DNA of 54,509 nucleotides from a virus (Duplodnaviria; Caudoviricetes), in the IMG/VR virus record IMGVR_UViG_3300025617_000962, positions 1 through 54,509 of that record, one strand, 5' to 3'. The position numbers and the translations under genes are program-made. A model generated the notes under the pieces. The model did not search any database, was not told the DNA's origin, and saw only the letters and a program-made list of their open reading frames with translations. Shown here piece by piece: positions 1,222-45,891 of the stretch. Every line of letters starts with the position of its first letter. Position 1 is the first letter of the stretch.

Positions 1222-1809
1222 TCATGAAGATAATTGATCCGCCATGCTGTGGTTAACATCTGCATGTCCCTGCTCGTCTGCACGAACTGCTTTGACAACT
1301 TCTCTTAGTCTTGCATTGGGTATTAAATTATAATAGTCAATTGCAATCTGCGGAGCAGGAATGTTTTCAATTACTCCTGCATCAATTTGCTCTAAATATT
1401 GAGTATAACTGATCACAGCTTGATCTTCGAAGTATCCTACCATTCTATGTGCTGTACTTGGAAAGAAAACATATAGAATAAAATAGAAATGCCAAAACAC
1501 AAACTGAGCAAGCAAGATAATTAATCTTTCTAACCAGTTAGGCTTTGCTATCTCTATGAATATCATTAGATGCATACGTTCGTTTTCAGCTTCATCTAAC
1601 AGTGTTTTGATCCAGCCACGTTCATCTGGCTGCATCTTTCTTAGACTACGCAAGTGGTTCCACATGCCTGCTACCATGCCGGGAACCCCTGCTACAGTTT
1701 CTAATACGACTGCTCTATGTCCATAACGCTTGGCGAAGAATGTATCCGCAAACCAGCGAAAGCTCATAGTCAAGCCGTAGGCTACGTTATCTGATAGGTT
1801 AAACCCCAT
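1222..1809 (-). CDS. aox: alternative oxidase (ubiquinol oxidase, di-iron)
   Basis: Motifs LETVAGVPG, EAENERMHL, FEDQA..SY and RADEQGH, plus a hydrophobic segment. Confidence 0.92.
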   Translation of the reverse strand: MGFNLSDNVAYGLTMSFRWFADTFFAKRYGHRAVVLETVAGVPGMVAGMWNHLRSLRKMQPDERGWIKTLLDEAENERMHLMIFIEIAKPNWLERLIILLAQFVFWHFYFILYVFFPSTAHRMVGYFEDQAVISYTQYLEQIDAGVIENIPAPQIAIDYYNLIPNARLREVVKAVRADEQGHADVNHSMADQLSS

Positions 1810-1930
1810 ACATCTGATGCTTGTACTCTGAAATACGTTGTGCTTCTTTGTACAAACCTTTGCTACGCAATTGTTGAATTGCCATACAGTATGAACGGTA
1901 TTCCATTGCTTTGATAAAACGATTCCACAT
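1799..1930 (-). CDS. small protein (43 aa, MWNRFIKAMEYRSY...), not in the ORF track
   Basis: Translated by hand; TAATG coupling to the upstream ORF; overlaps the aox start. Confidence 0.6.
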   Translation of the reverse strand: MWNRFIKAMEYRSYCMAIQQLRSKGLYKEAQRISEYKHQMYGV

Positions 1931-2121
1931 TATTTTTTGTCTCCGTTTATCATCAGCCATTTAGCTTCTTCTGTGTAACCCATGCGATGTAGTTCAGCAG
2001 CAGCTCTTGCCCTGCCCAACGATTCCATAAAGTTATATGTGCCACGGCCAAATGCTTTGATTGCAGCCCAAATAGGGTTCACAGTGTAATTGATCATTGT
2101 TGCTGTGGTCATTACACCCAT
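1930..2121 (-). CDS. small hypothetical protein
   Basis: ORF overlaps and is coupled to its neighbours; ARAAAELHRMGY helix. Confidence 0.65.
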   Translation of the reverse strand: MGVMTTATMINYTVNPIWAAIKAFGRGTYNFMESLGRARAAAELHRMGYTEEAKWLMINGDKK

Positions 2122-2360
2122 CCCTTCAAGTTAGCGTTCTCGCGAACAGCACGAATATCAGCAGTACCGTGTGCAACTGAGTAGATGTCGCCGCGAGTGA
2201 GTCCCATATCGTTTAGTTCACGATCAGACAGTGCTGACAGTTGACGGATTGTATTTTTGATTTCTTTGCGTTGAATACGCTTTTCGTTTAGGTCAACGAA
2301 ATATTGTGCAACTTTTTTGAATAGGCTTGAGTTGCCGCCTGTTAGTGTGATTGAAGTCAT
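2112..2360 (-). CDS. DUF1127 (YjiS-like) small protein
   Basis: TIRQLSALSDRELNDMGLTRGDI matches the DUF1127 signature; AAGGAG SD. Confidence 0.85.
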   Translation of the reverse strand: MTSITLTGGNSSLFKKVAQYFVDLNEKRIQRKEIKNTIRQLSALSDRELNDMGLTRGDIYSVAHGTADIRAVRENANLKGWV

Positions 2361-2592
2361 TAACTTCTCCTTTTATGTGTATAAGTGTGTGTGCTTCTAA
2401 GGTTCGTCACGTACCCTGGTCTCTTCCAGCGTCACCTTTTTATGGCATAGGAAATGCCCTTCATTTTTTACAAGCTGAAGACGCTTGTCTTAACAATATT
2501 ATTTATTATACTATACTATAGTATGACACGAAAAACAACTGCATTCCGTGCATACCGTACATGTTATTTTTGCATGACTCGCATTAGTTTTT

Positions 2593-2772
2593 CTAAACTA
2601 TGTTGCGGCGATCTATTGCTCGCCCAGAGTTCATGCAATACATAACGTATGCTTGGTCTCCTGGCTGAAACTCTGTCTTCACATAAGTTTCCATTGATTT
2701 AATTTTTTCCGATCGTGTAGGTGAGACCGCAGTCATCATTACACGACCAATTGCTTTTGCTAAATTGATCAT
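2593..2772 (-). CDS. small hypothetical protein (59 aa, MINLAKAIGR...)
   Basis: Translated by hand; GGAG-N6-ATG; downstream of the late promoter at 2859-2866. Confidence 0.65.
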   Translation of the reverse strand: MINLAKAIGRVMMTAVSPTRSEKIKSMETYVKTEFQPGDQAYVMYCMNSGRAIDRRNIV

Positions 2773-2858
2773 TGTTTTCTCCGTTGTAATGATGCTTTAT
2801 AAGGCGAGCGCCCGTTGTGTTACCAACGACTCAGGTCGAGAACTTATCTTGCCAAAGC

Positions 2859-2870
2859 TATTTATAAATA
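2859..2870. promoter_or_regulatory. palindromic bidirectional T4-type late promoter TATTTATAAATA
   Basis: Perfect palindrome giving TATAAATA on both strands, between divergent genes. Confidence 0.6.
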
Positions 2871-2944
2871 TTAAAAAATAATGATTGACAACAGATACGC
2901 TTAGTGTTATATTGATGCTGAGTGTATTTTTTTTGGAGCAACAC

Positions 2945-3172
2945 ATGTCAGAAGAAAGGATCAACACTTCGTTCTACGGAGTGTTCAAAGGCAAACTTGA
3001 TAAACAAAAGCAAGATTTGAAGAAAGAACTAGAACGTGCTAAGTCAGACAGGCGCAAGGACTGGTTGAAAAAACAAATCAAAGAAGCAAAGAGCATGCGA
3101 GATCTGTTAAAGCAAATGGAAAAGCAGATGGGGCATCAAACTCAATGCCCCCACTGCGGCGGCGATCTTTAA
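2945..3172 (+). CDS. coiled-coil protein with C-terminal CPHCG knuckle
   Basis: GGAG SD before the ATG at 2945; TTGACA-N17-TATATT promoter at 2885-2913. Confidence 0.7.
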   Translation: MSEERINTSFYGVFKGKLDKQKQDLKKELERAKSDRRKDWLKKQIKEAKSMRDLLKQMEKQMGHQTQCPHCGGDL

Positions 3173-3177
3173 AATTA

Positions 3178-3939
3178 TTAGTCTTGCCACTTCTCTAGAT
3201 TAGCAATGTAGTTTGTCATTGAGTGATCTGAGAAGCTGTCAACGCCACCCTTTTTCAAACCCATCCATATGCCACGCCACTTGTCTTTGACACGCTGCCA
3301 TCCTGACATCTTGCGAACATCGCCATAAGCATTCATGTAGTGCTCGTTGCCATGATGTGTGTAGCCCATGATGCGTAACGGAACAGTTGTAACAATATCA
3401 TTGTTATTTTTCCAACGATGATGTGTCACTCCTAGGTGTACAACATAACCTTTCCACCCTACTCTTGGCGAACCGTATGTGTATAGTTCTTGTGGATCAG
3501 GAACTGCTTCTTCGTACATACAACGACTTGCCATGATAGTTGCCATAGCTGCTCCGAGACTGTGTCCACAGAACCATAGTGTTTGCTTAGGAGGTTTTGC
3601 AACCAAGTCCTCAAGTACCATAGGCCAAAGCTCGTCTACTTCTGCTTTGAACCCTTGATGCACACGGCTTACTGTTTCTGCAACCACAGGTATTGCCTTC
3701 AAATCTGCTGCAATATCGTTAAACTCTGTAGGTTGTGTACCGCGACATGCAATTACCATATCTTCTTTGTTTGCGAAACGATATGCTTGTGCGCCTTCTC
3801 TATTGTAAAATTCTACAGTTGTAAATCCTAGTGTTTTCACTTGCTTTTTTACTTCTTTAATGTTATCATTATACGAAACCTCAGCAAGTTTAGCGAACAA
3901 TAGGGAACGCTCTTTGAAACTTAAATTTATTATTGACAT
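3178..3939 (-). CDS. class 3 lipase (alpha/beta hydrolase)
   Basis: CRGT lid motif, VHQGF, GHSLGA nucleophile elbow, YGSPRVG, NNNDIV, DHSM. Confidence 0.88.
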   Translation of the reverse strand: MSIINLSFKERSLLFAKLAEVSYNDNIKEVKKQVKTLGFTTVEFYNREGAQAYRFANKEDMVIACRGTQPTEFNDIAADLKAIPVVAETVSRVHQGFKAEVDELWPMVLEDLVAKPPKQTLWFCGHSLGAAMATIMASRCMYEEAVPDPQELYTYGSPRVGWKGYVVHLGVTHHRWKNNNDIVTTVPLRIMGYTHHGNEHYMNAYGDVRKMSGWQRVKDKWRGIWMGLKKGGVDSFSDHSMTNYIANLEKWQD

Positions 3940-11424: not shown

Positions 11425-11475
11425 TTGACAAGGCTCCTATTTGGTGTTATTATATACACTAATAGGAGCTTTTTT
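11425..11475 (+). promoter_or_regulatory. sigma70-type promoter overlapping a hairpin/T-run that contains the SD
   Basis: TTGACA-N17-TATTAT; GCTCCTATT pairs with AATAGGAGC, followed by T6. Confidence 0.7.
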
Positions 11476-11829
11476 ATGACTGAACGATCGCAAGAAGACA
11501 TAGTTAAAAACATTACAGAAGTAATGGAACAGTATGTAACCCCAGCAGTAGCACAGCACGGGGGCGAAGTTAACTTTGTTAGCTTTGAAAACGGTGTTGT
11601 ATTGGTAGAACTAAGTGGAGCATGTAGCGGCTGCGCAGGCAGCACAATGACTCTTCAACATGGTATCCGACAAATGCTTTCATCAATGGTGCCTGAAGTA
11701 TTAGATATTGAAGGTATAGACGATCCGATGTCAACAGTTGACCCATATTTTATGCATGATCCTTTTGGCATGCAACATATCAATTTAGAAGATTATGACA
11801 CAGACTTGCCAGAGGAACCTGAAGATTGA
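11476..11829 (+). CDS. NifU-C/NfuA-like Fe-S cluster carrier
   Basis: PAVAQHGGEV...LSGACSGC motif. Confidence 0.85.
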   Translation: MTERSQEDIVKNITEVMEQYVTPAVAQHGGEVNFVSFENGVVLVELSGACSGCAGSTMTLQHGIRQMLSSMVPEVLDIEGIDDPMSTVDPYFMHDPFGMQHINLEDYDTDLPEEPED

Positions 11830-14605: not shown

Positions 14606-16912
14606 ATGTCAAATGGAACAATGATCGTCAAGCGTGACGGTACAAAAGAACACCTCAACATTGATAAAATTCACAAAGTAGTAGAACATGCATGTGAAGG
14701 TTTAGCAGGTGTTAGTAGTAGTCAAATTGAAATGAATGCAAATATTCAATTCTATGACGGTATGAGTACAAATGAAATCCAAGAAATATTAGTACGTAGC
14801 GCAAATGATCTTATTTCATTAGATGCACCAAATTATCAATTTGCAGCAGCAAGACTGCTGAGTTATGGTGTTAACAAGATGGTGTTCGGCGAGTACAACG
14901 CAATTACACTGCAACACAATATTGATAAAAATATCGAACGTGGTGTATATGATGCAGAAATTTTAGAAAAATATACAGCTGAAGAGATTGCCACATTAGA
15001 CGGTTATATCCGTCACAAGCGTGATGAAAACTTTACCTATGCAGGACTACGTCAAGTGGTTGACAAATACCTTGTACAGGATCGTTCATCAGGCGAAATC
15101 TTCGAGACTCCCCAGTTCATGTACATGATGATTGCAGCAACACTATTTGCTAACTATCCATCAGAAACACGTATGCACTATGTAAGGAGATATTATGATG
15201 CGACCTCACTTTTTAAAGTCAATATCCCAACGCCAGTCATGGCAGGAGTCAGAACGCCTGTGCGACAGTTTGCTAGTTGCGTCCTTGTTGATAGTGACGA
15301 CACCCTTGATAGTATCTTCGCTAGTGATATGTCGATTGGTAGATACACTGCACAGCGAGCGGGTATCGGCATCAATGCGGGACGCATCAGAGGCGTCAAC
15401 AGCAGAATCAGAGGCGGAGAAGTAGCACACACAGGTATTGTTCCGTTTCTTAAGAAGTTTGAAAGCACAGTACGTTGCTGTACACAGAATGGTGTACGTG
15501 GCGGCAGTGCTACTGTACACTTCCCGTTTTGGCATCAAGAAATTGAAGACATCCTTGTGCTAAAGAACAACAAAGGCACAGAAGACAACCGTGTGCGCAA
15601 ATTGGACTATTCAATCCAGCTAAACAAAACAATGTATGAAAGACTACTAACTGGCGGCGATATCACTCTTTTCTCACCACATGATGTTCCGGGTCTATAC
15701 GATGCATACTTTGGCGATCCAGCAGTGTTCCAAGAGCTTTATGAAAAGTACGAACGTGCTACAAGCATCAAGAAAAAGTCTGTGCCAGCAATGGAATTGT
15801 TTTCAGCACTAATCAAAGAACGTGCAGAAACAGGACGTATGTATATCATGAATGTTGATCATGCTAACACACACAGTAGCTTCAAAGACACTGTATACAT
15901 GAGCAACTTGTGTCAAGAGATTACACTACCAACTAAGCCACTTAATCATATTGATGATGAAGAAGGTGAAATTGCTCTGTGTATTCTAAGTGCTATTAAC
16001 GTAGGATTAATTAAAAACATTGATGACTTAGAAGATCTATGTGATCTTGCTGTTCGTGCGTTAGAAGAAATTATTGATTATCAGCGTTACCCAATTGCAG
16101 CAGCAGAACGTTCAACCAAAGCTCGTCGTAGTTTAGGTGTAGGATATATTGGACTTGCGCATTACCTTGCTAAGAATCACGTACAATATGATAACCCACA
16201 AGCATGGAAACTTGTACATGACCTAACAGAAGCTTTCCAATATTACTTGCTCAAAGCATCAAACAATCTTGCTAAAGAGCGTGGTGCATGCGAGTACTTC
16301 AATCGTACTAAATACTCAGACGGTATCCTTCCAATTGATACATATAAAACGGATGTTGATACTATTGTAGCAAATGAGTTAAATTATGATTGGGATAGTT
16401 TACGCAGCGACATCAAGGAACACGGCCTCAGGCACTCAACGTTGTCCGCACAAATGCCATCGGAGAGCAGTTCCGTTGTGTCGAACGCAACAAACGGAAT
16501 CGAACCACCTAGAGGTTACTTGTCCGTTAAGAAGTCAAAGAAAGGGCCTCTTAAACAGATTGTTCCACAATATCAGAGCCTTAAGGCGCACTACACCTTG
16601 TTGTGGGACATGCCTAGCAACGAAGGTTATATCAACGTAGTTGCAGTAATGCAGAAGTTCTTTGATCAAGGTATCTCAGGCAACTGGAGTTACAACCCAA
16701 CACACTTCCCAGATAACGAAGTGCCAATGAGTAAGATGATTAATGACTTGTTGACAACTTACAAAATGGGTTGGAAAACATCTTACTACCAAAACACTTA
16801 TGATTATAAGACTGATCCAAGTGAATTAGAAGATGACAAGCCGGAACAAGCATTAGCACCAAGCACGGTCGATATGAGTGACGAAGAAGCTTGTGACAGT
16901 TGCGCAATTTAA
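14606..16912 (+). CDS. nrdA: ribonucleotide reductase class Ia alpha subunit
   Basis: ATP cone (VKRDG), FASCVL, SNLCQEI and a C-terminal CDSC. Confidence 0.97.
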   Translation: MSNGTMIVKRDGTKEHLNIDKIHKVVEHACEGLAGVSSSQIEMNANIQFYDGMSTNEIQEILVRSANDLISLDAPNYQFAAARLLSYGVNKMVFGEYNAITLQHNIDKNIERGVYDAEILEKYTAEEIATLDGYIRHKRDENFTYAGLRQVVDKYLVQDRSSGEIFETPQFMYMMIAATLFANYPSETRMHYVRRYYDATSLFKVNIPTPVMAGVRTPVRQFASCVLVDSDDTLDSIFASDMSIGRYTAQRAGIGINAGRIRGVNSRIRGGEVAHTGIVPFLKKFESTVRCCTQNGVRGGSATVHFPFWHQEIEDILVLKNNKGTEDNRVRKLDYSIQLNKTMYERLLTGGDITLFSPHDVPGLYDAYFGDPAVFQELYEKYERATSIKKKSVPAMELFSALIKERAETGRMYIMNVDHANTHSSFKDTVYMSNLCQEITLPTKPLNHIDDEEGEIALCILSAINVGLIKNIDDLEDLCDLAVRALEEIIDYQRYPIAAAERSTKARRSLGVGYIGLAHYLAKNHVQYDNPQAWKLVHDLTEAFQYYLLKASNNLAKERGACEYFNRTKYSDGILPIDTYKTDVDTIVANELNYDWDSLRSDIKEHGLRHSTLSAQMPSESSSVVSNATNGIEPPRGYLSVKKSKKGPLKQIVPQYQSLKAHYTLLWDMPSNEGYINVVAVMQKFFDQGISGNWSYNPTHFPDNEVPMSKMINDLLTTYKMGWKTSYYQNTYDYKTDPSELEDDKPEQALAPSTVDMSDEEACDSCAI
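15195..15425 (+). CDS. candidate nested gene in the +1 frame of nrdA (76 aa, one hydrophobic segment)
   Basis: TAAGGAG-N5-ATG is formed by AGG AGA Arg codons of nrdA. Confidence 0.5.
   Translation: MMRPHFLKSISQRQSWQESERLCDSLLVASLLIVTTPLIVSSLVICRLVDTLHSERVSASMRDASEASTAESEAEK
16386..16640 (+). CDS. candidate nested Cys-rich gene in the +1 frame of nrdA (84 aa)
   Basis: Open frame with CPHKC, CP and CCGTC; atypical nrdA codons across the overlap; weak SD. Confidence 0.35.
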   Translation: MIGIVYAATSRNTASGTQRCPHKCHRRAVPLCRTQQTESNHLEVTCPLRSQRKGLLNRLFHNIRALRRTTPCCGTCLATKVIST

Positions 16913-20656: not shown

Positions 20657-21409
20657 ATGCCAAGAGTACACAGAGTAGGCGACACTGACAGCGACGGCGA
20701 TGGAGCAGTTGGCGGATCAGAAAACGTTTTTGCAAACGGCGGACCAACACTTGGCGGGGCTGTCGCAGATGCACTCGGTCTTGAAGATACTGTAGGTATT
20801 GACGATGCACAGGCAAGATCTATTCTGTCAGGAAGAGCAGCTGAATTAGCAGCTGGACAGGATCCTGACACTATGGAGGCACTAGAATCCTTCGGCGGCG
20901 GCACACCAGGCGGTTCAAGTCCAGTAACAGGTGCAGAAGGTGCAGTTGGCGCGCCTGGCAGCGATTCGGCAACAGGAGAAGATGCTACAGAGGATTCAGA
21001 TATACCTCGTCCAACTTCGGAATGGATCAATGTTCAGCCTCATGTAAATCCAAGAGTGTTACCTCAAGTATGGACAAATGCAGAAAATCTTGCAAAATCA
21101 TTAGGTCGTGTTATTACATTAAACAGTGCTTATCGTTCTCCTGCATACAACTCTAGTGTAGGCGGAGCAAAAAAGAGTATGCATACACAGCGCAAAGCAA
21201 TCGACATACAATGGGGAACATCTAGCATACAAGGGCGTGTAGACATGATACAGAAAGCAATTGATGCAGGATTTACGGGCATAGGTTGCTACAATAGTTT
21301 TATGCACGTTGACATCGGCGGCAAACGTCAATGGGGTCCAAACGGTAGTAGAACAAGTCAATATGCACAATATAAATCTGTACTACAATCAAACGGATAT
21401 ACAATGTAA
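20657..21409 (+). CDS. PAAR-like spike-tip protein fused to peptidase M15A
   Basis: N-terminal PRVHRVGD...GSENVFANG; C-terminal SAYRSP..N...SMH...AID...HVD. Confidence 0.7.
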   Translation: MPRVHRVGDTDSDGDGAVGGSENVFANGGPTLGGAVADALGLEDTVGIDDAQARSILSGRAAELAAGQDPDTMEALESFGGGTPGGSSPVTGAEGAVGAPGSDSATGEDATEDSDIPRPTSEWINVQPHVNPRVLPQVWTNAENLAKSLGRVITLNSAYRSPAYNSSVGGAKKSMHTQRKAIDIQWGTSSIQGRVDMIQKAIDAGFTGIGCYNSFMHVDIGGKRQWGPNGSRTSQYAQYKSVLQSNGYTM

Positions 21410-22163: not shown

Positions 22164-22751
22164 ATGAAAGAAAAATGTATTTTAACAGATTGTGATGGCG
22201 TTTTATTCGATTGGGAATATGCGTTTGATCAATGGATGAAGCGACACGGGTACGTAAAAAACAAAACTCGTCAGTATTCAATTGCAGCAATGTATGATAT
22301 GGACAATGACGAAGCATTTCGTCTAATACGCATGTTCAACGAAAGTGCGTGGATTCGCAAACTTCCGCCATTGCGTGATGCTATCCATTATGTTAAAAAA
22401 CTTCATGCAGAACATGGTTATGTATTTCATGCTATTACTAGTTTGAGCAACGATGATTACTCTCAGCACTTGCGTACAAAGAACTTGCGTGAAATGTTTG
22501 GAGACAGCGTATTTGAAAAATACATTTATCTAGACACTGGTGCAGACAAAGACGAAGTGCTTGAACAGTATCGCGACACTGGATGCTACTGGATTGAAGA
22601 CAAACCAGAAAATGCTAGTGTCGGTCGTGCTGTTGGACTAAACAGTATACTAGTTGATCACGAGCACAATCGTGATTACTCGGGTAAAGCAGTTCGAGTA
22701 AAGAACTGGAAAGAAATTTATGAACATATTACAGGAGAAAAATATGAGTGA
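22164..22751 (+). CDS. HAD-family phosphatase/nucleotidase (T4 gp30.2-like)
   Basis: DCDGV and WIEDK motifs; promoter TTGACA at 22102. Confidence 0.8.
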   Translation: MKEKCILTDCDGVLFDWEYAFDQWMKRHGYVKNKTRQYSIAAMYDMDNDEAFRLIRMFNESAWIRKLPPLRDAIHYVKKLHAEHGYVFHAITSLSNDDYSQHLRTKNLREMFGDSVFEKYIYLDTGADKDEVLEQYRDTGCYWIEDKPENASVGRAVGLNSILVDHEHNRDYSGKAVRVKNWKEIYEHITGEKYE

Positions 22752-22929
22752 TAAAACACAACATGAACAAATTGTAGAAGCATTTAATGCTTACCTAGCT
22801 GAACACGAAGCTTGGGAAACCAAAAACGTTAAAGCAGCGGCAACACGAGCACGTGGTGCATTAGGTGACCTTGGCAAACTGACAAAGTCTCGCCGTGCAG
22901 AGATTCAAGAACGCAAGAACAATATGTAA
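22744..22929 (+). CDS. histone H1-like Hc1-family small protein
   Basis: KAAATRARGALGDLGKLTKSRR; AGGAG SD. Confidence 0.65.
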   Translation: MSDKTQHEQIVEAFNAYLAEHEAWETKNVKAAATRARGALGDLGKLTKSRRAEIQERKNNM

Positions 22930-27406: not shown

Positions 27407-29191
27407 ATGAGTCATGAACAAGATAAAGCTAATGCTGAAGCAAAAAAACAGCAGCAGCAGAATGAAAAGAATGCCAAGTCAAACCAAAAGCACCAAGCTG
27501 AAATTGACAAGCAAAATGCTGACGCTGCTAAAGCTAACGCAGACAAAGAAGCAGAAGCTGCAAAGCAAAAGCAAGCACAAGCTGAAGCAGACGCTGATAA
27601 AGCACAAGCTGATTTAGACGCAGCTCATGCAGCAGAAAAAGAAGCAGCTGATAATTACGATGCAGCACAAGCTGAAGTACAAAAGTCAGCAGACATGGTA
27701 CAGCAAGTATCTAAGCCGCAGTACAATATTGAAGTAGTAGATGAAGTTGCAGTTCAAACTTCAGGTTCTGTGGGAAACGACAACGCAGGAGCAAGTGGTA
27801 GTGCAGGCGCACATGCAGGTTACGAAGCAGGTGCAAGTGCAGGCTATGAAGTAACAGACACAAGTGTTGCAGCAGGCGCAGAAGTGCATGCAAAAGTAGA
27901 AGCAGGCGCAGAAGCAAGCGGCGAAGCACATGCTAAACAAGAGATTGTACCTGGTGTAGATGCAGTAGCAGACGCAAGTGGTTCAGCAGAAGCACACGCA
28001 AGTGCAGAAGCAGAAGCACACGTTGAAGGTAGTGCAGGATGGGACGGCAGTGATGCAACAGCAGCAGTAAATGCAGGAGCAAGTGCAAGAGCAGAAGCTG
28101 GTGCAAGTGGATCAGTAGATGCAAGTGCGGGACTTGAAACACCGTTAGGAGATGTAAAAGTAGATGCAGGCGCTGAAGGTCAAGCAAACGTACACGCAGA
28201 AGCATATGCAGAAGCAGGCGCACATGCAAGTGTAGGCGAGCATGGTGTAGATGTAGGCGCAGGAGCAATTGCTGGTGCAGGAGTAGGCGCTGATGCAAGC
28301 GGTTCAGCACACTTGGGTGGTGCAGAAGTAAGCGGCAGCGCAGGAGCAAGTATTGGCGCACAAGTTGGCGCACAAGGTTCAGCACATGCAACATACGAAG
28401 ATGACACAATTTCGTTTGGCATTGACGGTGAGGCAGCATTATTAGTTGGATTAGACGTTGATGTAAATGTAGATGTTGACATTGGTCCGCTAATTGACGG
28501 TGCAAATGCAATGATGCATGCAGGCAAGAGCATGGAAGAAGCCTGTGATTATATCACTGGTGAAATTGACAAAGCACAAGAAGATGCAATTAAAGTTGCA
28601 GACGATGCACTTAAAGTTGCAAACCAAACAGCAAAAGTTGCTAACGATGCATATAACGAAACTAAAAAAGCAACAAAGGCAGCAGAAGATGCAGTTAACG
28701 ATTGTGCCAATGCAGTAACAGATGCAGCCAACCAAGTTGCCAACTGGACTGTATCGAGTGCAAATGCATTGGCAAATTCACAGGCAGCACAGCAGACTAT
28801 TAATGCCTGCAACAGTGCTATCAAAGCTTGTGACAGTGCTATCAACGAATGCAACAAAGCAATCAACAGTGCAGAAAAAGCAATCACAGATGCAGCCAAC
28901 GCAGCAGCAAAGGCAGCAGAAGATGCAGCTAATGCAACTGCAAAAGCAGGCAAGGATGCTTGGAAAGCAACCAAGAAGTTTTTCTCAGACGTGCGTCTAA
29001 AAGAGAATGTTGAATTTGTAGGCACAGTGGCAGGTATCAACACATACACCTACAACTACTTGGGATCAAGCGTAGAACACACGGGTGTTATGGCACAAGA
29101 ACTACTGGATACAGATTATGCAGCAGCAGTAAGTGTACATACAAATGGCTACTATCAAGTAGATTATAACAAGTTGCCAAAGCTACACTAA
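27407..29191 (+). CDS. Ala/Gly-rich fibrous protein with C-terminal peptidase S74 autocleaving chaperone
   Basis: SDVRLKENV...GVMAQEL...YYQVDY; flanking coiled coils. Confidence 0.75.
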   Translation: MSHEQDKANAEAKKQQQQNEKNAKSNQKHQAEIDKQNADAAKANADKEAEAAKQKQAQAEADADKAQADLDAAHAAEKEAADNYDAAQAEVQKSADMVQQVSKPQYNIEVVDEVAVQTSGSVGNDNAGASGSAGAHAGYEAGASAGYEVTDTSVAAGAEVHAKVEAGAEASGEAHAKQEIVPGVDAVADASGSAEAHASAEAEAHVEGSAGWDGSDATAAVNAGASARAEAGASGSVDASAGLETPLGDVKVDAGAEGQANVHAEAYAEAGAHASVGEHGVDVGAGAIAGAGVGADASGSAHLGGAEVSGSAGASIGAQVGAQGSAHATYEDDTISFGIDGEAALLVGLDVDVNVDVDIGPLIDGANAMMHAGKSMEEACDYITGEIDKAQEDAIKVADDALKVANQTAKVANDAYNETKKATKAAEDAVNDCANAVTDAANQVANWTVSSANALANSQAAQQTINACNSAIKACDSAINECNKAINSAEKAITDAANAAAKAAEDAANATAKAGKDAWKATKKFFSDVRLKENVEFVGTVAGINTYTYNYLGSSVEHTGVMAQELLDTDYAAAVSVHTNGYYQVDYNKLPKLH

Positions 29192-30591: not shown

Positions 30592-31110
30592 ATGAAAAAT
30601 TATATTGAGGCAGTACTCAAAGGCATTCTTATTGGCAGCATTGCAGTGTTTATTGCAAGCACAGCACAAGCAAAAGGGTTGTTCACAGCAGACGATGATC
30701 CGCAAGCATGGTGCTTGGCACAGAACATCTACTACGAAGCTCGCGGCAGTAGTTTAGCGGACGCAGCAGCAGTATCTGATGTAGTTATCAATCGTGTACA
30801 AGACACACGTTATCCTAATACAATTTGCGCAGTAGTACAGCAAGGTAAGAAAACATCTTCTGGTGCTATGAAACGCAATGCGTGTCAGTTCTCGTGGTAC
30901 TGCGATGGCAAGAGCGACTGGCCCACAGACACAGACAGCTGGGTTAAGGCACAAGAACTTGCACTGTCTATGATACTTTATGGTAAATATCGTGGCATTA
31001 CAGAAGGTGCAACACACTATCATGCACACTATGTAAATCCTCGCTGGGCACGTAGCTTCGATTTAACAGGCACAATCGGCGATCATAAGTTTTATCGTTG
31101 GAATCAGTAA
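30592..31110 (+). CDS. SleB/Hydrolase_2 cell wall hydrolase
   Basis: CLAQNIYYEARG, CQFSWYCDG, GATHYHA, IGDHKFY. Confidence 0.9.
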   Translation: MKNYIEAVLKGILIGSIAVFIASTAQAKGLFTADDDPQAWCLAQNIYYEARGSSLADAAAVSDVVINRVQDTRYPNTICAVVQQGKKTSSGAMKRNACQFSWYCDGKSDWPTDTDSWVKAQELALSMILYGKYRGITEGATHYHAHYVNPRWARSFDLTGTIGDHKFYRWNQ

Positions 31111-31152: not shown

Positions 31153-33456
31153 ATGATATTTGGAATACTTACTCTTATCACTGCTCTATGTATCAGTGCA
31201 GTGGCAATATATTACTCTGTCGCAGGATTGGTAGCAATCTTTGCGGCAGCAGCTCTACCCATTATGATTATGGGCGGCACATTAGAAATAGCAAAACTTG
31301 TAACCGCAGTGTGGTTACACAAGTACTGGAAGCAAGCTACATGGTGGCTTAAAACGTATCTAAGCGTGGCTGTAGTGGTGCTTATGTTTATTACAAGCAT
31401 GGGCATCTTTGGCTTTCTAAGCAAAGCACACATTGAACAAACAAGTGCCAGTGAAGAAAGTGTAGCAAGAGTAGAAAGTATTACAGATGAAATTGCTAGA
31501 CAGAACGCTATTGTTACTCGTGCAAACACACGCATTGCACAGTTGGAAAACAGTGAAACAGGCGCTGACGCAACTATACAAGCACAAATTGACAAAGAGC
31601 AAACTCGTATTGATCGTGCATTTGAACGTATCCAACCTGCTATACAACAGCAGAATCAAATTATTTCAGATGCAAGAACAGATGATGCAACACGCACAAA
31701 GCCATATGAAGATCAACTTGCTAGTATACAAGCAGAAGTGCTAAGACTAGAGTCTAGTGCAAAAGAATACGAAACAAGTATCACAGAACTTGACACAGAC
31801 AACAGTGCAGTAGAACCATTGCTTGCACAGATTGCCAGTCTTGAAGAAGAAATCATTCGTGTAACCAATCAAATCAATAGTGGCGAGCAACAACAGGTTA
31901 GAGCAGGACAAGCAATTATAGGCGTGTCAAGTGATGGCTTGTTTGGCGGCAACACTAGAACAGCACTAGCAGCTTGGGTAAGTGGACAGCGTGAGCGCAT
32001 CACACAAATACAAGGTGAAGTAGCACAGGTGCGCAAGGATGCAACAGCTACAGTTGATGCAGAGCGTATACGTTTAGCAGATGTAGTCAAAGACATTCGC
32101 ACAGTACAAATTCCTGCACTCAAAGATCGCGAGCTTGCAATGCTTGCTAAGATTGACGAAGTGCGTCAAACAGAGTCCCCTGTTATTAAAACAGCAAGAG
32201 ATGAAATACAGAGACTACGTGAAAGTGCAGAGTCACAAGTAGCACAGTCACAAACACTAATTGAACGTCTACGCAGTCAACTGGGCGATGTAGGCAATGC
32301 ACAAGAACTTGAAGCAGACATAGACGAACAACAAAATCGTATTAGAACTGCTAACACAGAAATTGACACACTCACAGAAGAAAAGATTAAACTAGAAGCA
32401 GAATATCGCAAACTAGAAGCAGAAGTAGGACCTATCAAATACATTGCTGAATTCGTATATGGCGAAGCAGCAGATGGCAACATGCTGGAAGAAGCTGTGC
32501 GTTGGGTAATAATTATTATTATCTTTGTGTTTGATCCACTCGCAGTCCTATTATTAATAGCCGCACAGTATACTTTTGAGTTCCGCAAGAAAGAACTTGA
32601 AGATGATGACGGTGAACGTCTTCGGCTCGAGAGAGCTGAATACGAACGAGCAAGAGCACAAGCAATAGTTGACAATCCTGGAGTTACATTTGATAATCCT
32701 CTACCTGAGGATAGTAGCAATACAGATGTCAGTGCGACTGCCGAACAAAAGGAAGAAGTAGATGACGTCATTAATAGACCTGATGATGGGAAACAAGATC
32801 AAGACACCGCCGACGGAAGTGGAACAGACGCAAGAGATAGTTCCAGCAAAGCCAGCGATGACATCAGAACAGTTGAAAGAGATGATCAACCATCTGGAGC
32901 CGGACACGATGGAGGAGACGATCCCGACAGAGTGGAACAACCCGGAAGAGGAGAGTTAGATGAATACATACAGTCATATATTACAGCAGATAGCACTACA
33001 GCAGATGATGCTAGCAGAGACATTGTATCAGAAACAGATACTGCCGTGGCAGATGCAGATGATACAGAATTGGAACCAACAGAAATACAAGCTGATGAGC
33101 CTCCAAAAAAAGTAGGCGTTATTCCTGATACCAAGAACAGAATGTTCTACCCAGAAGAGCTCCAAAAACCTAAAAAAAAAGTAGAGTCAGAGTTACCGGA
33201 AGAATTAAATCCAAATAGCAAATACTATAGTAAACAGGAGCAAGACGATTCTTGGGTGACTGCCCGGGCAGATTGGGAAGCTAGAAATCCAACTGAAGAC
33301 AGAGCAGCGTGGCGACATGCTTTTGAATCTGGAGAAATAAACTCACTTCCATGGGAAACAGCAGTAATTGATGATAACTACAATACACAAGAAGGTTATC
33401 GGCAAAATGCAGAGCAAAGCGACAATACATTGTTTAACAAACTATCTAACAAATAG
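31153..33456 (+). CDS. membrane-anchored long coiled-coil protein with acidic tail
   Basis: N-terminal TM segments; DGLFGGNTRTAL peptidoglycan-binding-like motif; FVFDPLA TM. Confidence 0.75.
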   Translation: MIFGILTLITALCISAVAIYYSVAGLVAIFAAAALPIMIMGGTLEIAKLVTAVWLHKYWKQATWWLKTYLSVAVVVLMFITSMGIFGFLSKAHIEQTSASEESVARVESITDEIARQNAIVTRANTRIAQLENSETGADATIQAQIDKEQTRIDRAFERIQPAIQQQNQIISDARTDDATRTKPYEDQLASIQAEVLRLESSAKEYETSITELDTDNSAVEPLLAQIASLEEEIIRVTNQINSGEQQQVRAGQAIIGVSSDGLFGGNTRTALAAWVSGQRERITQIQGEVAQVRKDATATVDAERIRLADVVKDIRTVQIPALKDRELAMLAKIDEVRQTESPVIKTARDEIQRLRESAESQVAQSQTLIERLRSQLGDVGNAQELEADIDEQQNRIRTANTEIDTLTEEKIKLEAEYRKLEAEVGPIKYIAEFVYGEAADGNMLEEAVRWVIIIIIFVFDPLAVLLLIAAQYTFEFRKKELEDDDGERLRLERAEYERARAQAIVDNPGVTFDNPLPEDSSNTDVSATAEQKEEVDDVINRPDDGKQDQDTADGSGTDARDSSSKASDDIRTVERDDQPSGAGHDGGDDPDRVEQPGRGELDEYIQSYITADSTTADDASRDIVSETDTAVADADDTELEPTEIQADEPPKKVGVIPDTKNRMFYPEELQKPKKKVESELPEELNPNSKYYSKQEQDDSWVTARADWEARNPTEDRAAWRHAFESGEINSLPWETAVIDDNYNTQEGYRQNAEQSDNTLFNKLSNK

Positions 33457-34100: not shown

Positions 34101-35234
34101 ATGCGCATTGATAATGAAGTTCGATTGGATTACAAAGACGTACTAATTCGTCCCAAGCGTAGTACTCTTAAAAGTCGCTCTCAAGTGCGACTTGAGCGTA
34201 AGTTCACATTTCGCAACTATGAGCCGCCGTTTCCACAAAATATCAAAGATGATCACTATGAAGGTATTCCTATTATGGCTGCTAACATGGATGGCGTTGG
34301 TACGTTTGAAATGGCAGACACACTAGGCGCTCAAGGCATCTTTACTTGTCTAGTTAAAACATACACTGCGGAAGAACTTATTGATTATTTCTACGGTGAC
34401 GGACTCAATCGCACAGACTATGTAGCTATGAGCATTGGCACAAGCGAAGCAGACTTTGAAAAGTTGTGTGCTGTGTCTGAGAAGTGCGAAGACAATCTAA
34501 AATACGTGTGTATGGATATTGCAAATGGATATTCAGAACACTTTGCAGATCGAGTACGTGAAGTGCGCAAACGCTTCCCACACATTGTAATCATCGCAGG
34601 TAATGTTGTTACAGGCGAAATGACGGAGGAACTTATTCTTGCTGGAGCCGATATTGTTAAAGTGGGTATTGGCCCTGGTAGTGTTTGTACTACTCGTATT
34701 CAAACTGGGGTGGGATATCCGCAACTGTCAGCAGTTATCGAGTGTGCAGACGCGGCGCACGGTCTTGGCGGACATATCATTGCTGATGGTGGTTGCACTT
34801 GTCCTGGGGACGTGGCTAAAGCCTTTGCAGCTGGCGCTGACTTTGTAATGCTAGGCGGTATGCTAGCAGGACACGACGAAGGCGGTGGCAAAGTAATTAC
34901 AAAAAGTTACCTAACAAACGAATTAAGCGAAAAATCAGGATACACTGAACAATATGTAGAAACAAAAGAGTTTGTGCAGTTCTACGGTATGAGTAGTGAT
35001 GCCGCAAACACAAAGCATTTTGGCGGATTGAAAGATTATCGTTCGTCAGAAGGTAGAGAAGTACTTGTTCCCTATCGCGGAGCAGTGGCTACTACCGTAC
35101 AAGACTTGCTCGGAGGTATTCGATCAACTTGTACATACGCAGGCGCTATGAAGCTCAAGCAACTTAGCAAATGCACAACCTTTGTTCGTTGTACACAGCA
35201 ATTTAATGCTGTTTATGCGAATAATAATAAATAA
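34101..35234 (+). CDS. guaC: GMP reductase
   Basis: [44 protein letters not shown]. Confidence 0.95.
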
Positions 35235-35238
35235 AGAC

Positions 35239-35287
35239 GGAACGCCAGACGGGTTCCAAACAATCTTGCTTAACAAGGAGAAATAGA

Positions 35288-35290
<3 letters not shown>
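35239..35290 (+). promoter_or_regulatory. ROSE-like RNA thermometer leader of groES
   Basis: 5' hairpin, then TCTTGCTT pairing with the AAGGAGA SD. Confidence 0.6.
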
Positions 35291-37211
<1,921 letters not shown>

Positions 37212-37227
37212 TACCTCAATGATAAAT

Positions 37228-37288
37228 AAAAGTGCAACGCCGAAAGGGTTGCACTTTTTAATCTTGCTTTATAAGGAGAAAACAAATG
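37228..37288 (+). promoter_or_regulatory. ROSE-like RNA thermometer leader of the sHsp gene
   Basis: Same architecture as the groES leader. Confidence 0.7.
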
Positions 37289-37756
37289 ACAAGACTAACA
37301 ACTCTAGACCTACCTTCATTCCACAGATCAACTGTAGGATTTGACAGACTATTTAACGAACTGGACAGACAGTTTACTAACAGTCAATCACAAGGTTACC
37401 CACCATACAACATTGCACAGATCAACGAAGACGAGTTTATGATTACACTTGCTGTCGCTGGCCTCGGCATGGATAACTTGGACATTACCAAAGACGGTAA
37501 CATCCTACGTGTAGAAGGTACTTCGCCTAAGGGTGGAGAACATGTAAACTATTTGCACAAAGGAATTGCAGAGCGCAACTTCCGTAGAGAGTTTACACTT
37601 GCTGATCACGTTGAAGTTGAAAGCGCAGGCCTTGAGCATGGCATGCTGAACATTCATCTCAAGCGTGAAGTTCCAGAAGAATTGCAGCCCAAGAAGATTG
37701 CAATCAAAGACTGGAACGGACACGTTCAAGAAGCAATTGACACTGACAGCGAGTAA
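37286..37756 (+). CDS. ibpA: small heat-shock protein (IbpA/Hsp20)
   Basis: GFDRLF, YPPYNI, YLHKGIAERNF, GMLNI. Confidence 0.93.
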   Translation: MTRLTTLDLPSFHRSTVGFDRLFNELDRQFTNSQSQGYPPYNIAQINEDEFMITLAVAGLGMDNLDITKDGNILRVEGTSPKGGEHVNYLHKGIAERNFRREFTLADHVEVESAGLEHGMLNIHLKREVPEELQPKKIAIKDWNGHVQEAIDTDSE

Positions 37757-37763
37757 GCAGTCT

Positions 37764-37795
37764 TTGGGGAAGTGTAACAGCTTCCCCAATTTATT
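37764..37795 (+). terminator. hairpin, probable terminator
   Basis: TTGGGGAAG...CTTCCCCAA followed by a T-rich tail. Confidence 0.6.
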
Positions 37796-37808
37796 TTAGG
37801 AGATAAGA

Positions 37809-38117
37809 ATGAGTACAGATACAGACGTCATAATTGACGAAAAGATCAAACAAACAGTTAAAGAGCCGAGTAATTATAATGTTATTATGCTCAATGATGA
37901 CACTACTCCTGTAGAATGGGTTATCGGTGTACTTAAACAAATTTTTAAACACACTGATGTAAATGCAGAATCTTTAACAATGAGTATTCATAATGAAGGA
38001 TCGGCTGTTGTTGGTACGTATAAGTACGAGATAGCAGAGCAAAAAAGTAACGAAGCAATTAATGCCAGTCGTAATCACGGATTTTCCTTACAAGTGAAAG
38101 TAGAAGAATCGGAATGA
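37809..38117 (+). CDS. clpS: N-end-rule adaptor ClpS
   Basis: YNVIMLNDDTTPVEWV...IHNEGSAVVG..EIAEQK. Confidence 0.9.
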   Translation: MSTDTDVIIDEKIKQTVKEPSNYNVIMLNDDTTPVEWVIGVLKQIFKHTDVNAESLTMSIHNEGSAVVGTYKYEIAEQKSNEAINASRNHGFSLQVKVEESE

Positions 38118-38671
38118 GTAATTTAAAAGACCTTACATGGGAACATCATAAAAATGCAGAAAGACAATCATTTGTAAAAGAAATGTTCGCCAAAGAGCCA
38201 CAGATAAGTGTAGAACGTTACGCATGTTATCTTTTCAATCAACATCCACAATACAACATGCTAGAAATGCTGTCAATGATGCATGGACTGTTTGATGGAA
38301 TGCCCGAACTGCGCAGAGCACCTAGCATACATGAAGACTATCAAGAACTGTGGGGCGAAGCAAATGCTAATCAACCTCCATTGATGCCTGTTGTAAAAGA
38401 TTACATGGATCATTTGATGAGTATCAAAGACGATGCAGACAAGCTGATGGCACATGTGTACGTAAGACACATGGGAGACCTAAGCGGCGGACAAATGATT
38501 GCTAAACGTGTTCCCGGAGAAGGCCGCATGTATAAGTTTGATCGAGATCATGATGAACTCAAAGAGCTAGTACGTGCAAGACTAGATGATAGTATGGCAG
38601 ACGAAGCAAAGTTGTGTTTTGACTTTGCAACTAAGATGTTTCAGCAATTGGGAGAAATTAAAAATGATTAG
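38114..38671 (+). CDS. heme oxygenase (HemO/Ho1-like)
   Basis: LKDLTWEHHKNAE and AHVYVRHMGDLSGGQ. Confidence 0.9.
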   Translation: MSNLKDLTWEHHKNAERQSFVKEMFAKEPQISVERYACYLFNQHPQYNMLEMLSMMHGLFDGMPELRRAPSIHEDYQELWGEANANQPPLMPVVKDYMDHLMSIKDDADKLMAHVYVRHMGDLSGGQMIAKRVPGEGRMYKFDRDHDELKELVRARLDDSMADEAKLCFDFATKMFQQLGEIKND

Positions 38672-39461
38672 AATTGGTGCAGCACAAATTCCCGTAACTT
38701 CTAGTATGACTCAAAATGTCGAGCACATTAAAACTGCACTCGATTGGGCAGGAAAAAACCAAGTAAATTACTTGTTAACTCCCGAAGGATCATTAAGTGG
38801 ATATCTTAACACCTACAGAGATCTCGAAACTAGCAATATCGAAAGTTTATTACAAGATGTAGTATCTTATGCAACAAGCAAATCAGTATGTCTAGCATTA
38901 GGAACAGAAATTATTAAAGAAGTAGATTTTGGAAAAGTTAAACGCAGTCAAATTCAATACTACGATGATACTGGATTTTCTATTGGCGAGTATAATAAAC
39001 AAATGACAATACCAGGCGAACATTCATACCCTGGTAGCGGTCCTGAAATTATAAAAGCTGAAGGACTTCAAACAACCGGATCCTATAAATTTAATATTGG
39101 ATCTTTGATATGTAATGACATGTGGGGCCAGCGGGACGACACACAAATTTTAATTAGAGATTTATTTTATTATACCAACTCTAATGTTGATGTAATATTT
39201 CATGCCAGTAACGGATTTCGTGGTCAAGAAGCTGGAGACGAAGAAGCAAATAAAAATTTAAGAAAGTTTTCAGATATGCATCTTTGGATGGCATCAAGAT
39301 ATAGAATTCCTATAGTAACAGTTGACAATTGTTATAAAATGGACGGCGAGTTTTATGACGGTCCTACTAGTAGTACCAGTGGAATAATACACAATGGCGA
39401 ATGGTTAGTAAAAGCAAAGCCAAACGGCATTGATTATTTTTATTACGATTTTAACTTTTAG
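38664..39461 (+). CDS. carbon-nitrogen hydrolase (nitrilase superfamily), paralog 1
   Basis: TPEG / YNK / LICND give the E-K-C triad. Confidence 0.8.
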   Translation: MIRIGAAQIPVTSSMTQNVEHIKTALDWAGKNQVNYLLTPEGSLSGYLNTYRDLETSNIESLLQDVVSYATSKSVCLALGTEIIKEVDFGKVKRSQIQYYDDTGFSIGEYNKQMTIPGEHSYPGSGPEIIKAEGLQTTGSYKFNIGSLICNDMWGQRDDTQILIRDLFYYTNSNVDVIFHASNGFRGQEAGDEEANKNLRKFSDMHLWMASRYRIPIVTVDNCYKMDGEFYDGPTSSTSGIIHNGEWLVKAKPNGIDYFYYDFNF

Positions 39462-39470
39462 GAAATTATT

Positions 39471-40157
39471 ATGAGTGTTATTTGGGATAGACTGATAGAG
39501 TGTAAAGATGAAATTATCAACATATTTGAAGAAAATGCGTCAGAGTTTGAAGAACCAGGTCTTGCCCATTTTAATAACGATTTGTGGATTAATCGCGTTT
39601 GGCGCAATGATCATGTTAGGCGGGCTCACATTGATGTTGTAGACGCTCGTGACACAAAAGGCTTATGGATGATGCATGTGTGTGTATTTCCTGTACTCAA
39701 CAACGACGGTCCTATCTACGGTTTTGATGTTATTGCTGGCAAGAACAAAATGACAGGTGCTTTTCACGACTTTAGTGCTAGTGCTACATTTGATCATCCA
39801 ATGATTGAAGGCTATAAGGAAGCAGTAGCAGACTTTATCCCCAAGAAGCAACGACAACTACCTGAATGGGCTACTAATATTTTTACAGACAAAATGCTGG
39901 CAGCTGGCAATGTAAACAGTGAAGAAGAAGCAGTTGCCATTATTGAACTTGCACAAGACAATCTCCGTGCATACTTTGATGAGATAGGCGAGTTTACAGG
40001 GTTCGGCGATAGGAGTTTAGTAACCGCAGCACAAAACTATTACTGTCATAATCAGCAACAGAATCCGCACACACCTCGTACTATGAAAAGTTTAGGACTT
40101 AACGAAGAAGACGTTGACCGTTTCTGTACAGATATGTTGTTTCCTAAAATTGCATAA
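39471..40157 (+). CDS. ferredoxin-dependent bilin reductase (PcyX/PcyA-like)
   Basis: RRAHIDV, MMHVCVFP, YGFDVI, HDFS, LPEWA..IF, QQQNPHT; close to the heme oxygenase. Confidence 0.85.
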   Translation: MSVIWDRLIECKDEIINIFEENASEFEEPGLAHFNNDLWINRVWRNDHVRRAHIDVVDARDTKGLWMMHVCVFPVLNNDGPIYGFDVIAGKNKMTGAFHDFSASATFDHPMIEGYKEAVADFIPKKQRQLPEWATNIFTDKMLAAGNVNSEEEAVAIIELAQDNLRAYFDEIGEFTGFGDRSLVTAAQNYYCHNQQQNPHTPRTMKSLGLNEEDVDRFCTDMLFPKIA

Positions 40158-40185
40158 ATATTAAAAAGAAATAGGAAACAGTAAC

Positions 40186-41868: not shown

Positions 41869-41957
41869 TCATTATACTGCTACTTAATCTATACCCCATT
41901 AACTAATAAATATACTAGTAGAGCGTGAGGGCGCACTATTATATCTAGGGGGCTAGA

Positions 41958-45348: not shown

Positions 45349-45514
45349 CGACAAAAAATCACCTGTAGTGTATTGGACCAGCGAATGGGTTGATACTGGA
45401 GAAGTTGAAGTTAGACACTTTAAAGATAAAACACGCAAAGAAGTTAACAAAAGAGTTCTCAAAGGAGAGTTAAATACAAACTACAAGGGGTATAACAAAA
45501 AATGGATCCATTAA
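45338..45514 (+). CDS. small hypothetical protein (58 aa)
   Basis: Translated by hand; fills the gap and overlaps both neighbours. Confidence 0.4.
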   Translation: MKNNDKKSPVVYWTSEWVDTGEVEVRHFKDKTRKEVNKRVLKGELNTNYKGYNKKWIH

Positions 45515-45879: not shown

Positions 45880-45891
45880 GGAAGGGTAAAA

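Follow-up and report, generated by a model that had tools for sequence, protein, structure and literature searches.

Does the phage gene nrdA, which encodes the large subunit of class Ia ribonucleotide reductase, hold a second protein-coding gene in its +1 frame? The question is raised by a 54.5-kb fragment of the IMG/VR virus record IMGVR_UViG_3300025617_000962 (Duplodnaviria; Caudoviricetes). We refer to the whole of this stretch (54,509 nucleotides, 40.6% GC) as the window; the completeness of the record is estimated at 15%. An earlier note on this DNA had proposed that a 76-amino-acid open reading frame (ORF), here called ORF1, is nested in nrdA behind an internal Shine-Dalgarno (SD) sequence. 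Comparison with relatives leads us to consider it quite likely that a true protein-coding gene, overlapping (overprinting) nrdA in its +1 frame, occupies positions 15195–15425, and ORF1 is probably translated from the internal SD. The parts in question are as follows.

14606–16912, plus strand: nrdA, class Ia ribonucleotide reductase large subunit, 768 amino acids, frame 0, with the Pfam domains ATP-cone, Ribonuc_red_lgN and Ribonuc_red_lgC.
15183–15189, plus strand: predicted internal SD TAAGGAG, made by the nrdA codons gTA AGG AGa; seen in the sequence and in its conservation within a clade.
15195–15200, plus strand: two adjacent +1 starts, ATG ATG, made by tAT Gat and gAT Gcg, 5 and 8 nt past the SD.
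15195–15425, plus strand: ORF1, 76 amino acids in the +1 frame over nrdA codons 197–273, with the stop TAG at 15423–15425; seen in the sequence and in the depletion of +1 stops.
15270–15332, plus strand: hydrophobic, transmembrane-like segment of ORF1, residues L26–C46, overlapping the FASC/VLVD region of NrdA; seen in hydropathy and third-position bias.

Positions 15182–15200 read GTA AGG AGA TAT TAT GAT G and encode V-R-R-Y-Y-D of NrdA. The TAA within TAAGGAG doubles as the stop that closes the +1 frame upstream, and the two ATGs hinge on TAT (Tyr197) and GAT (Asp198). ORF1 is embedded wholly within nrdA on the same strand with an offset of +1, and its translation includes LLVASLLIVTTPLIVSSLVIC. 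The SD and the nested 76-amino-acid ORF that the earlier note had described are all present at 15183–15425. Its remark that this gene mostly uses CGT for Arg also agrees with the codon counts, in which AGG is rare: nrdA encodes arginine with CGT 21 times, AGA 9 times, CGC 3 times, and AGG and CGA twice each. The established genes of the window have AGGAG-type SDs at a spacing of 4–9 nt, and the heptamer TAAGGAG also precedes its GroEL and Hsp20 genes. By its sequence, ORF1 thus has putative translation start signals of its own, consisting of TAAGGAG and an ATG at 5 or 8 nt.

The best 80 IMG/VR loci by NrdA were codon-aligned with the window to give a family set of 81 rows. Their NrdA proteins share 72–89% amino acid identity with that of the window, whereas identity to cultured phages is at most 72%, with cyanomyophages nearest. 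Expected values were taken from a null in which the protein sequence is fixed and synonymous codons are drawn from each gene's own usage. Synonymous sites are near saturation in this set, as four-fold degenerate sites show a median divergence of 0.53 when the regions of interest are set aside. Over the whole of nrdA, the mean number of +1 stops per gene is 48.8 against 51.6 expected. Codons 193–270 carry 0.56 stops per gene against 3.97 expected, a ratio of 0.14 that is the minimum of nrdA, and the ratio is near 1.0 in the rest of the gene. The open +1 frame that the earlier note had suggested looking for in related phage nrdA genes is therefore there: a stretch of at least 60 codons spanning codons 200–250 is open in 74–75 of the 81 rows. 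The only other +1 stretch open in a majority covers codons 600–650 (69 rows), and elsewhere the number is at most 18 rows.

The pattern of codon choice shows how the frame is kept open. In the ORF1 region, the codons ATA, GTA and YTA are chosen at 1–9% where the next codon begins with A or G and a +1 stop would result, and the same NTA choices for Ile, Val and Leu reach 16–20% where it begins with C or T. This contrast is absent from the rest of nrdA. Avoidance that depends on the next base points to reading in the +1 frame, as GTA and ATA are not antisense stops. Frames +2, −1 and −2 are not depleted of stops over the same codons. The −0 antisense frame is mildly depleted over the ORF1 region (1.5 stops per gene against 3.1 expected) because the NTA codons are avoided. 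Two antisense ORFs on the minus strand, 15193–15468 and 15206–15538, were considered and rejected, with −2 stops as frequent as expected and the −0 frame still at 1.5 stops per gene. When the rows are reduced to 18 lineages at a four-fold p-distance of at least 0.5 from each other, 15 have no stop in codons 194–263, each with a probability of 0.001–0.07 of being open under the null; the other three (L045, L051 and L054) have 2–3 stops each. The last +1 stop upstream is the TAA in gTA Agg in 95% of the rows. All the above indicate that selection keeps the alternative frame open to a degree for which the host protein and codon usage do not account.

The start signals follow a clear phylogenetic pattern. 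In a maximum-likelihood tree, the 81 rows consist of 16 basal rows, which have Lys-Lys (AAR AAA) at the site, and a 65-row clade that includes the window. Removal of a 9-row subclade that has lost the signal leaves 56 rows, which we call the SD clade. The conservation of AGG-AGA in related nrdA genes, another check set by the earlier note, was found in the window's own clade, where AGG is kept in 55 of the 56 rows and AGA in 51, together with the preceding GTA in 53. In the family as a whole, GTA makes up 39% of Val codons, and AGG and AGA make up 9% and 33% of Arg codons. The Tyr codons that flank the SD codons are split 33:23, 24:32 and 30:26 over the same 56 rows. An SD-like motif 4–10 nt before a +1 ATG is found in 55/56 rows of the SD clade, 0/9 of the loss subclade and 0/16 of the basal rows. 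The two nrdA codons that follow those of Tyr197 and Asp198 are also unusually fixed, with GCG in 64 and ACC in 63 of the 81 rows.

Contigs assembled from sequencing runs contain relatives at least 90% alike, in marine DNA libraries and, in small shares, in four metatranscriptome-labelled libraries. Among such variants (runs X15, X1 and X2), Tyr196 changes very often from TAT to TAC. A contig from the RNA library X15 has GAC TCG in place of GAT GCG, by which the second ATG is gone and the first is kept. At 15183–15189 there is no difference among the run contigs listed, beyond which there are 150 further rows.

The 9-row subclade (L044, L047, L051, L052, L054, L049, L053, L045 and L046) serves as a natural control. 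It is monophyletic and nested within the SD clade with a support of 94 in the maximum-likelihood tree. None of its nine rows has the SD-like motif and seven have a broken ORF1, the three tabulated having 2–3 stops each, near the expected number. In these seven rows the frequency of A at nrdA third positions (A3) over codons 218–243, where ORF1 is strongly hydrophobic, is back at 0.23 against 0.26 expected. The subclade is also without ORF2, a second nested ORF described below, and two rows keep a 45-amino-acid remnant. All three signals (SD, open +1 frame and A3 bias) vanish together where ORF1 is lost, and neither the NrdA protein nor a regional codon bias explains them.

A longer form of ORF1 is found in cultured phages. 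The +1 frame is open at the same place of nrdA in six cultured cyanomyophages with about 70% NrdA identity (syn9, P-RSM1, ACG-2014d, MED4-213, S-SCSM1 and Sf-CH1a), where the ORF has 116–127 amino acids and its ATG lies a few codons upstream of the window's start position. We combined these six with another 80 IMG/VR loci found with syn9 NrdA, and all 86 rows carry the longer ORF1, mostly of 115–125 amino acids. Their +1 stops number 0.00–0.01 per 60 codons against about 2 expected, for stretches starting at codons 195–240. The 27 cyanophage lineages at least 0.5 apart have a single stop between them, whereas the null predicts a median of 2.9 for each lineage. Taking both sets together, 153 of 160 IMG/VR loci have an ORF1 with an ATG and a length of at least 40 amino acids, which we count as intact. 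A tblastn search with the 121-amino-acid syn9 ORF matched 458 GenBank phage records, and all 458 matches cover at least 80% of the query. By the first word of the organism name, these records divide into Synechococcus (363), Cyanophage (61), Prochlorococcus (24), Marine (7) and Pelagibacter (3). Among the 40 listed of these 458 matches, all lie under nrdA or in an unannotated record, and there is no separate feature for the ORF. No paper that describes an ORF inside nrdA came up in full-text literature searches, small-ORF catalogues in supplements aside.

Cultured phages with the long form include syn9, P-RSM1, S-RIM2 and Mosig. In Pelagibacter phage Mosig (L172, nrdA at 1415–3736), a 121-amino-acid ORF1 has an AAGGA motif upstream, and it is open even though this nrdA has 34% GC and 39 +1 stops elsewhere. 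In contrast, +1 stops are numerous at the place of ORF1 in outgroup nrdA genes at 43–55% identity (T4-like QL01, KVP40-like phi-pp2, RaK2 and Synechococcus phage B23), so the NrdA protein sequence does not force an open frame. The maximum-likelihood tree suggests that ORF1 was gained once, at the base of the group of 167 rows, and that there was a single main loss; this tree is midpoint-rooted with long outgroup branches, and the direction of change is read from it on that basis. In the window ORF1 ends early at the TAG made by GTA GCA, and 62% of the 81 rows have a stop at that codon. From the sequence comparison, the 76-amino-acid ORF1 of the window is a short form of an apparently overprinted gene of mostly 115–125 amino acids.

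If the frame is read, it might be entered by a slip from nrdA instead of by initiation. A programmed +1 frameshift at the tandem AGG-AGA, or at AAA-AAA in the Lys-Lys relatives, would yield NrdA residues 1 to about 195 fused to a hydrophobic tail. In Escherichia coli, +1 shifts can be favoured by AGG/AGA codons in tandem and by SD-like sequences. Several features of the locus would suit such a slip, as both codons are rare in nrdA, the +1 frame opens right at the site with the TAA in gTA Agg as its last upstream stop, and the basal relatives have a six-A run at the same place. It would also account for the open frame in relatives without the SD. However, a frameshift needs no ATG, yet 80 of the 81 family rows (52.2 expected) and all 86 cyanophage rows (64.4 expected) keep one in the stretch from the last +1 stop to codon 205. 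In the SD clade, the codon pair at the start site is TAC+GAT in 26 rows, TAT+GAT in 15, TAT+GAC in 14 and TAT+AAT in 1, while TAC+GAC, the pair without an ATG, is found in 0 of 56 against 6.5 expected (Fisher p = 2.7e-5). The position of the cyanophage ATG shifts from row to row while that of the upstream stop varies. There is no in-frame stop or known slippery site of the CUU-UGA type, and cyanophages with GTC AGA AGA or GTC CGA CGA retain ORF1. We therefore regard a frameshift as improbable, and initiation at an ATG within nrdA is preferred, for which both the conserved ATG and the relatives without the SD speak.

The predicted product has one outstanding property, its hydrophobicity. The 19-residue hydropathy of the +1 translation, averaged over the family, peaks at 2.1 over nrdA codons 218–243, which is the maximum of the gene (gene-wide −0.18 ± 0.56). 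A value of at least 1.6 is reached by 69 of the 81 rows, compared with 1–36% of rows in nine control segments. The earlier note had cautioned that +1 frames are hydrophobic by nature. This was put to the test at the nrdA third positions, which are the second positions of +1 codons, and the hydropathy of ORF1 proved to go beyond the expectation from codon usage: in the helix region A3 is 0.06 against 0.25 expected, and the frequency of T (T3) is 0.59 against 0.45, the largest excess in nrdA. In the tail, codons 244–272, A3 is normal. AlphaFold2 with a 149-row alignment predicted a single continuous helix with a mean pLDDT (predicted local distance difference test score) of 85.6. On these predictions the product of ORF1 is most likely a small single-pass inner-membrane protein.

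The sequence of this helix bears on a second alternative, in which ribosomes would read the +1 frame but the peptide would have no function, and their loading at the internal SD would protect or unfold the long nrdA mRNA or tune NrdA synthesis. The +1 residues vary freely in the window's clade, at a pace close to that of synonymous sites, the four-fold divergence being 0.59 within ORF1 against 0.53 outside; this would be expected if the product were dispensable, as would the failure of a protein-atlas search to find anything protein-like. On the other hand, the third positions keep the hydrophobic helix (A3 0.06 against 0.25) at the same place in both clades. Within the cyanophages the helix sequence itself is constrained, with a four-fold divergence of 0.29 in the hydrophobic part against 0.57 outside, and the ORF length is nearly fixed at about 121 amino acids in cyanophages and Mosig. 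A role of translation alone is thus unlikely in our view, and it ranks next after the frameshift; a functional protein product fits these observations better.

A nucleotide-level signal that serves nrdA, such as an SD-like pause for NrdA folding, an RNA structure or a local codon bias, is very unlikely. The SD does lie within the all-alpha N domain (Pfam residues 142–218), about 30 residues before the barrel domain at 223, and the −0 antisense frame is mildly stop-depleted (1.5 against 3.1 expected). That frame nevertheless still holds 1.5 stops per gene, and the stop avoidance depends on the first base of the next codon. The SD decays where ORF1 decays. A dedicated RNA element at ORF1 was rejected, since there was no Rfam match, the local fold was weaker than that of shuffled sequences (z = +0.97) and the consensus fold of the region was ordinary; nor are four-fold sites in the body of ORF1 conserved, so there is no structure to conserve. 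An internal promoter or terminator was also rejected, as consensus matches occurred at chance level.

Within the window alone, neither the length of ORF1 nor its SD motif exceeds chance. Among the 61 plus-strand gene calls there are five nested same-strand ORFs with an ATG and at least 76 codons, and ORF1 ranks fifth. TAAGGAG is seen 6 times on both strands against 4.76 expected. Out-of-frame internal AGGAG-N4-9-ATG sites number five on the plus strand, with that of ORF1 leading to the longest ORF. Resampling of synonymous codons gives a probability of about 0.003–0.01 for an open +1 frame over the ORF1 stretch alone. It is the comparative data, and not the window, that place ORF1 well beyond chance. 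A functionless chance ORF with a chance SD-like motif, to which the five nested ORFs and the chance rate of TAAGGAG would give room, is the least likely explanation of all, as every comparative result counts against it among relatives whose four-fold divergence is 0.53–0.57.

Similar arrangements elsewhere in the window were seen in passing. Three longer +1 ORFs, also nested but lacking an SD, are found at 28722–29000 (92 amino acids), 31487–31744 (85 amino acids) and 44648–44884 (78 amino acids). At 32949–33115 on the plus strand, within the ORF at 31153–33456, an out-of-frame AGGAG-N6-ATG is followed by a 51-amino-acid +1 ORF. At 41424–41436 on the plus strand, within the ORF at 40186–41868, an AGGAG is followed 5 nt on by an in-frame ATG, a possible internal start for a 144-amino-acid C-terminal product.

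Several points weigh against ORF1 as an overprinted gene with its own SD, in addition to the chance level of its length and motif within the window. The rows are phylogenetically related, and their counts are not independent events. The SD is, judging from the tree, a single evolutionary gain derived in one clade. The 16 basal rows (AAA AAA) and the cyanophages keep ORF1 without it, and hence it is not essential to ORF1. SD-like motifs precede nrdA itself in relatives of all clades, and yet the basal rows would have to start ORF1 without one. Internal initiation must also compete with ribosomes that are elongating nrdA. In the window's clade, only openness and hydrophobicity appear to be selected and not the sequence, and such selection might also reflect a need for translation alone. 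The charges that flank the helix are +2 on the N side and −2 on the C side in the window's clade, and −1 and +4 in the cyanophages; this opposite bias leaves the predicted topology ambiguous. ORF1 has no Pfam or PHROG family match, and the protein-atlas search gave no look-alike, with a recognition score of 1077 compared with 2300 typical of known families.

Unnamed copies of ORF1 do occur in metagenome protein catalogues. A word-based protein search for free-standing homologues gave 64 matches, all unnamed or "hypothetical", of which 62 belong to clusters with one or two members and several are chimeric with ribonucleotide reductase Pfam domains. A hidden Markov model search over 1.84 billion representatives gave 137 matches. 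The 14 inspected resemble +1 translations of nrdA, and two of them include stretches of frame-0 NrdA.

The nested-gene proposal of the earlier note is thus supported by the conservation of the SD and start and by the open frame, and its translation side would proceed as follows. A 30S subunit would bind the internal UAAGGAG (15183–15189) on the nrdA mRNA and initiate at AUG 15195 or AUG 15198, 5 or 8 nt downstream. The predicted product of 75–76 amino acids would have a short polar N-terminus, a central hydrophobic helix (about L26–C46) and an acidic tail. In the window's clade, the change of NrdA from Lys-Lys to Arg-Arg (AAR AAA to AGG AGA) would have created the canonical SD, and the preceding GTA would supply the TAA that cuts off an older upstream start. 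The creation of an SD would fit a host that uses SDs. Initiation at this SD, entry of the product into the membrane and a role in infection are what we infer from the sequence.

ORF1 has a companion in the same gene and the same frame.

16386–16640, plus strand: ORF2, 84 amino acids in the +1 frame, basic, with four conserved Cys; seen in its openness and synonymous constraint.

In most relatives ORF2 has 65 amino acids, and it is open over nrdA codons 592–658 in 69 of the 81 rows. Its translation is well conserved, starting with M-I-G and having near-invariant C20, H22, C24, C32, C46, P47 and L48. The ORF2 region shows the strongest synonymous constraint in nrdA, with a four-fold divergence of 0.36 against 0.53 outside and the rare codons TCC, GGG, TCG, GTG and CGG fixed. 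With ORF2 as query, 396 phage records matched, and in 385 the match extends over 80% or more of the query; P-HM2 was seen only in this search. ORF2 is absent from the outgroup nrdA genes (QL01, phi-pp2, RaK2 and B23) and from Mosig. As Mosig has ORF1 without an ORF2-like frame, the two nested ORFs are not always together. AlphaFold2 gave no confident fold for ORF2 (pLDDT 44.5), and no match was found in Pfam, PHROGs or the protein atlas. Its region has the lowest consensus (alifold) folding energy in nrdA, a weak −13.7, so that an RNA element at ORF2 is also possible.

Because both ORFs decayed in the same subclade, our best guess is that their products would cooperate at the membrane or close to it, with a role dispensable in some lineages. 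A broader idea, which we offer only tentatively, is that nrdA of marine T4-like phages is triple-coding: ORF1, for a single-helix membrane protein, and ORF2, for a basic four-Cys peptide, would have arisen once at the base of the group and been retained throughout its radiation, as an unrecognised two-part module that belongs to the cyanomyophage core but is missing from all annotations. AGG-AGA would record a host switch, two residues of NrdA having changed so that the hidden gene gained an SD suited to an SD-dependent host. This idea would cover the cyanomyophages, at least one pelagimyophage and the uncultured jumbo-phage clade of the window.

Phage annotation pipelines systematically drop embedded genes, and among the marker and auxiliary genes of marine viruses nrdA is one of the most widely used. 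If ORF1 is a gene, a small membrane protein, perhaps with a second peptide, would join the core gene set of cyanomyophages. Synonymous sites of nrdA would not be neutral, which bears on nrdA phylogenies and on work with ratios of nonsynonymous to synonymous rates (dN/dS). The locus would also provide a clean natural series of how a gene is born by overprinting, from its gain through the acquisition of an SD and the shortening from 121 to 76 amino acids to its loss. As cultured phages carry the long form, the hypothesis is directly testable by standard phage-host work.

The rest of the window gives some information on the virus. Besides nrdAB it encodes an exonuclease, GroEL, Hsp20, a peroxiredoxin, a 2-oxoglutarate-Fe(II) oxygenase and endolysin-like genes. 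The GroEL of the window shares 68% identity with enterobacterial GroL and 60% with the GroEL of a 349-kb Vibrio phage. Positions 34101–48239 hold a stress and chaperone cluster unusual in a phage (dehydrogenase, GroEL, Hsp20, ferredoxin-oxidoreductase-like protein and peroxiredoxin). We infer that the window derives from a jumbo phage of a marine, SD-using heterotroph, and the cluster would fit a marine gammaproteobacterium as the host. A 766-amino-acid protein at 43048–45348 had no tblastn match in 50,697 phage records. Two called ORF starts on the plus strand, TTG 11425 (11425–11829) and ATG 22720 (22720–22929), are probably misplaced; each has a canonical AGGAG-N6-7-ATG start further on in its frame, at 11476 and 22744, respectively.

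Among known systems, ORF1 most likely belongs, on its sequence features, to the embedded phage genes, a kind already known. The lambda gene Rz1 is a small +1-frame gene within Rz that has its own internal ribosome-binding site and sends its product to the cell envelope. Like Rz1 in Rz, ORF1 is a complete +1 gene, as predicted, within a larger phage gene on the same strand and has its own predicted ribosome-binding site. The product of Rz1 is an outer-membrane lipoprotein, rich in proline and with a lipobox, whose partner in the spanin pair is encoded by the host gene Rz. ORF1, unlike Rz1, has a central hydrophobic helix and sits in the gene of a nucleotide-metabolism enzyme; there is no lipobox in its 76 amino acids, where L-V-I, and not [ASG], precede the only Cys, a late one. 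An o-spanin of the Rz1 type was therefore rejected.

Gene E inside gene D of phiX174 and L of MS2 are overprinted +1 genes, lying within essential genes, for membrane proteins of 75–91 amino acids with a single helix, whose hydrophobicity comes from T-rich second positions. They are the sole lysis genes of tiny single-stranded DNA and RNA phages. ORF1 shares with them the overprinting, the +1 frame and the single hydrophobic helix, but this helix is central and not N-terminal, and the phage is a large double-stranded DNA phage with endolysin-like genes. These genes lie at 20657–21409 and 30592–31110, and ORF1, with its one hydrophobic helix, is in nrdA and not beside them.

In the +1 frameshift of the prfB type, an SD-like sequence within the coding region stands just upstream of a productive +1 frame. 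ORF1 likewise has an SD-like sequence just upstream of the +1 opening, together with the rare AGG-AGA pair. Unlike prfB, it has no in-frame stop or slippery codon of the CUU type, and a start codon is conserved instead.

A bacterial counterpart is GndA of E. coli, a same-strand nested small protein within gnd, which was found experimentally and has fewer than 50 amino acids by the definition of such peptides in that study (PMC11230408). ORF1 resembles GndA in lying in an alternative frame within the gene of a housekeeping metabolic enzyme. It differs from this bacterial protein in that it is viral, has 76–121 amino acids and is supported by comparative sequence.

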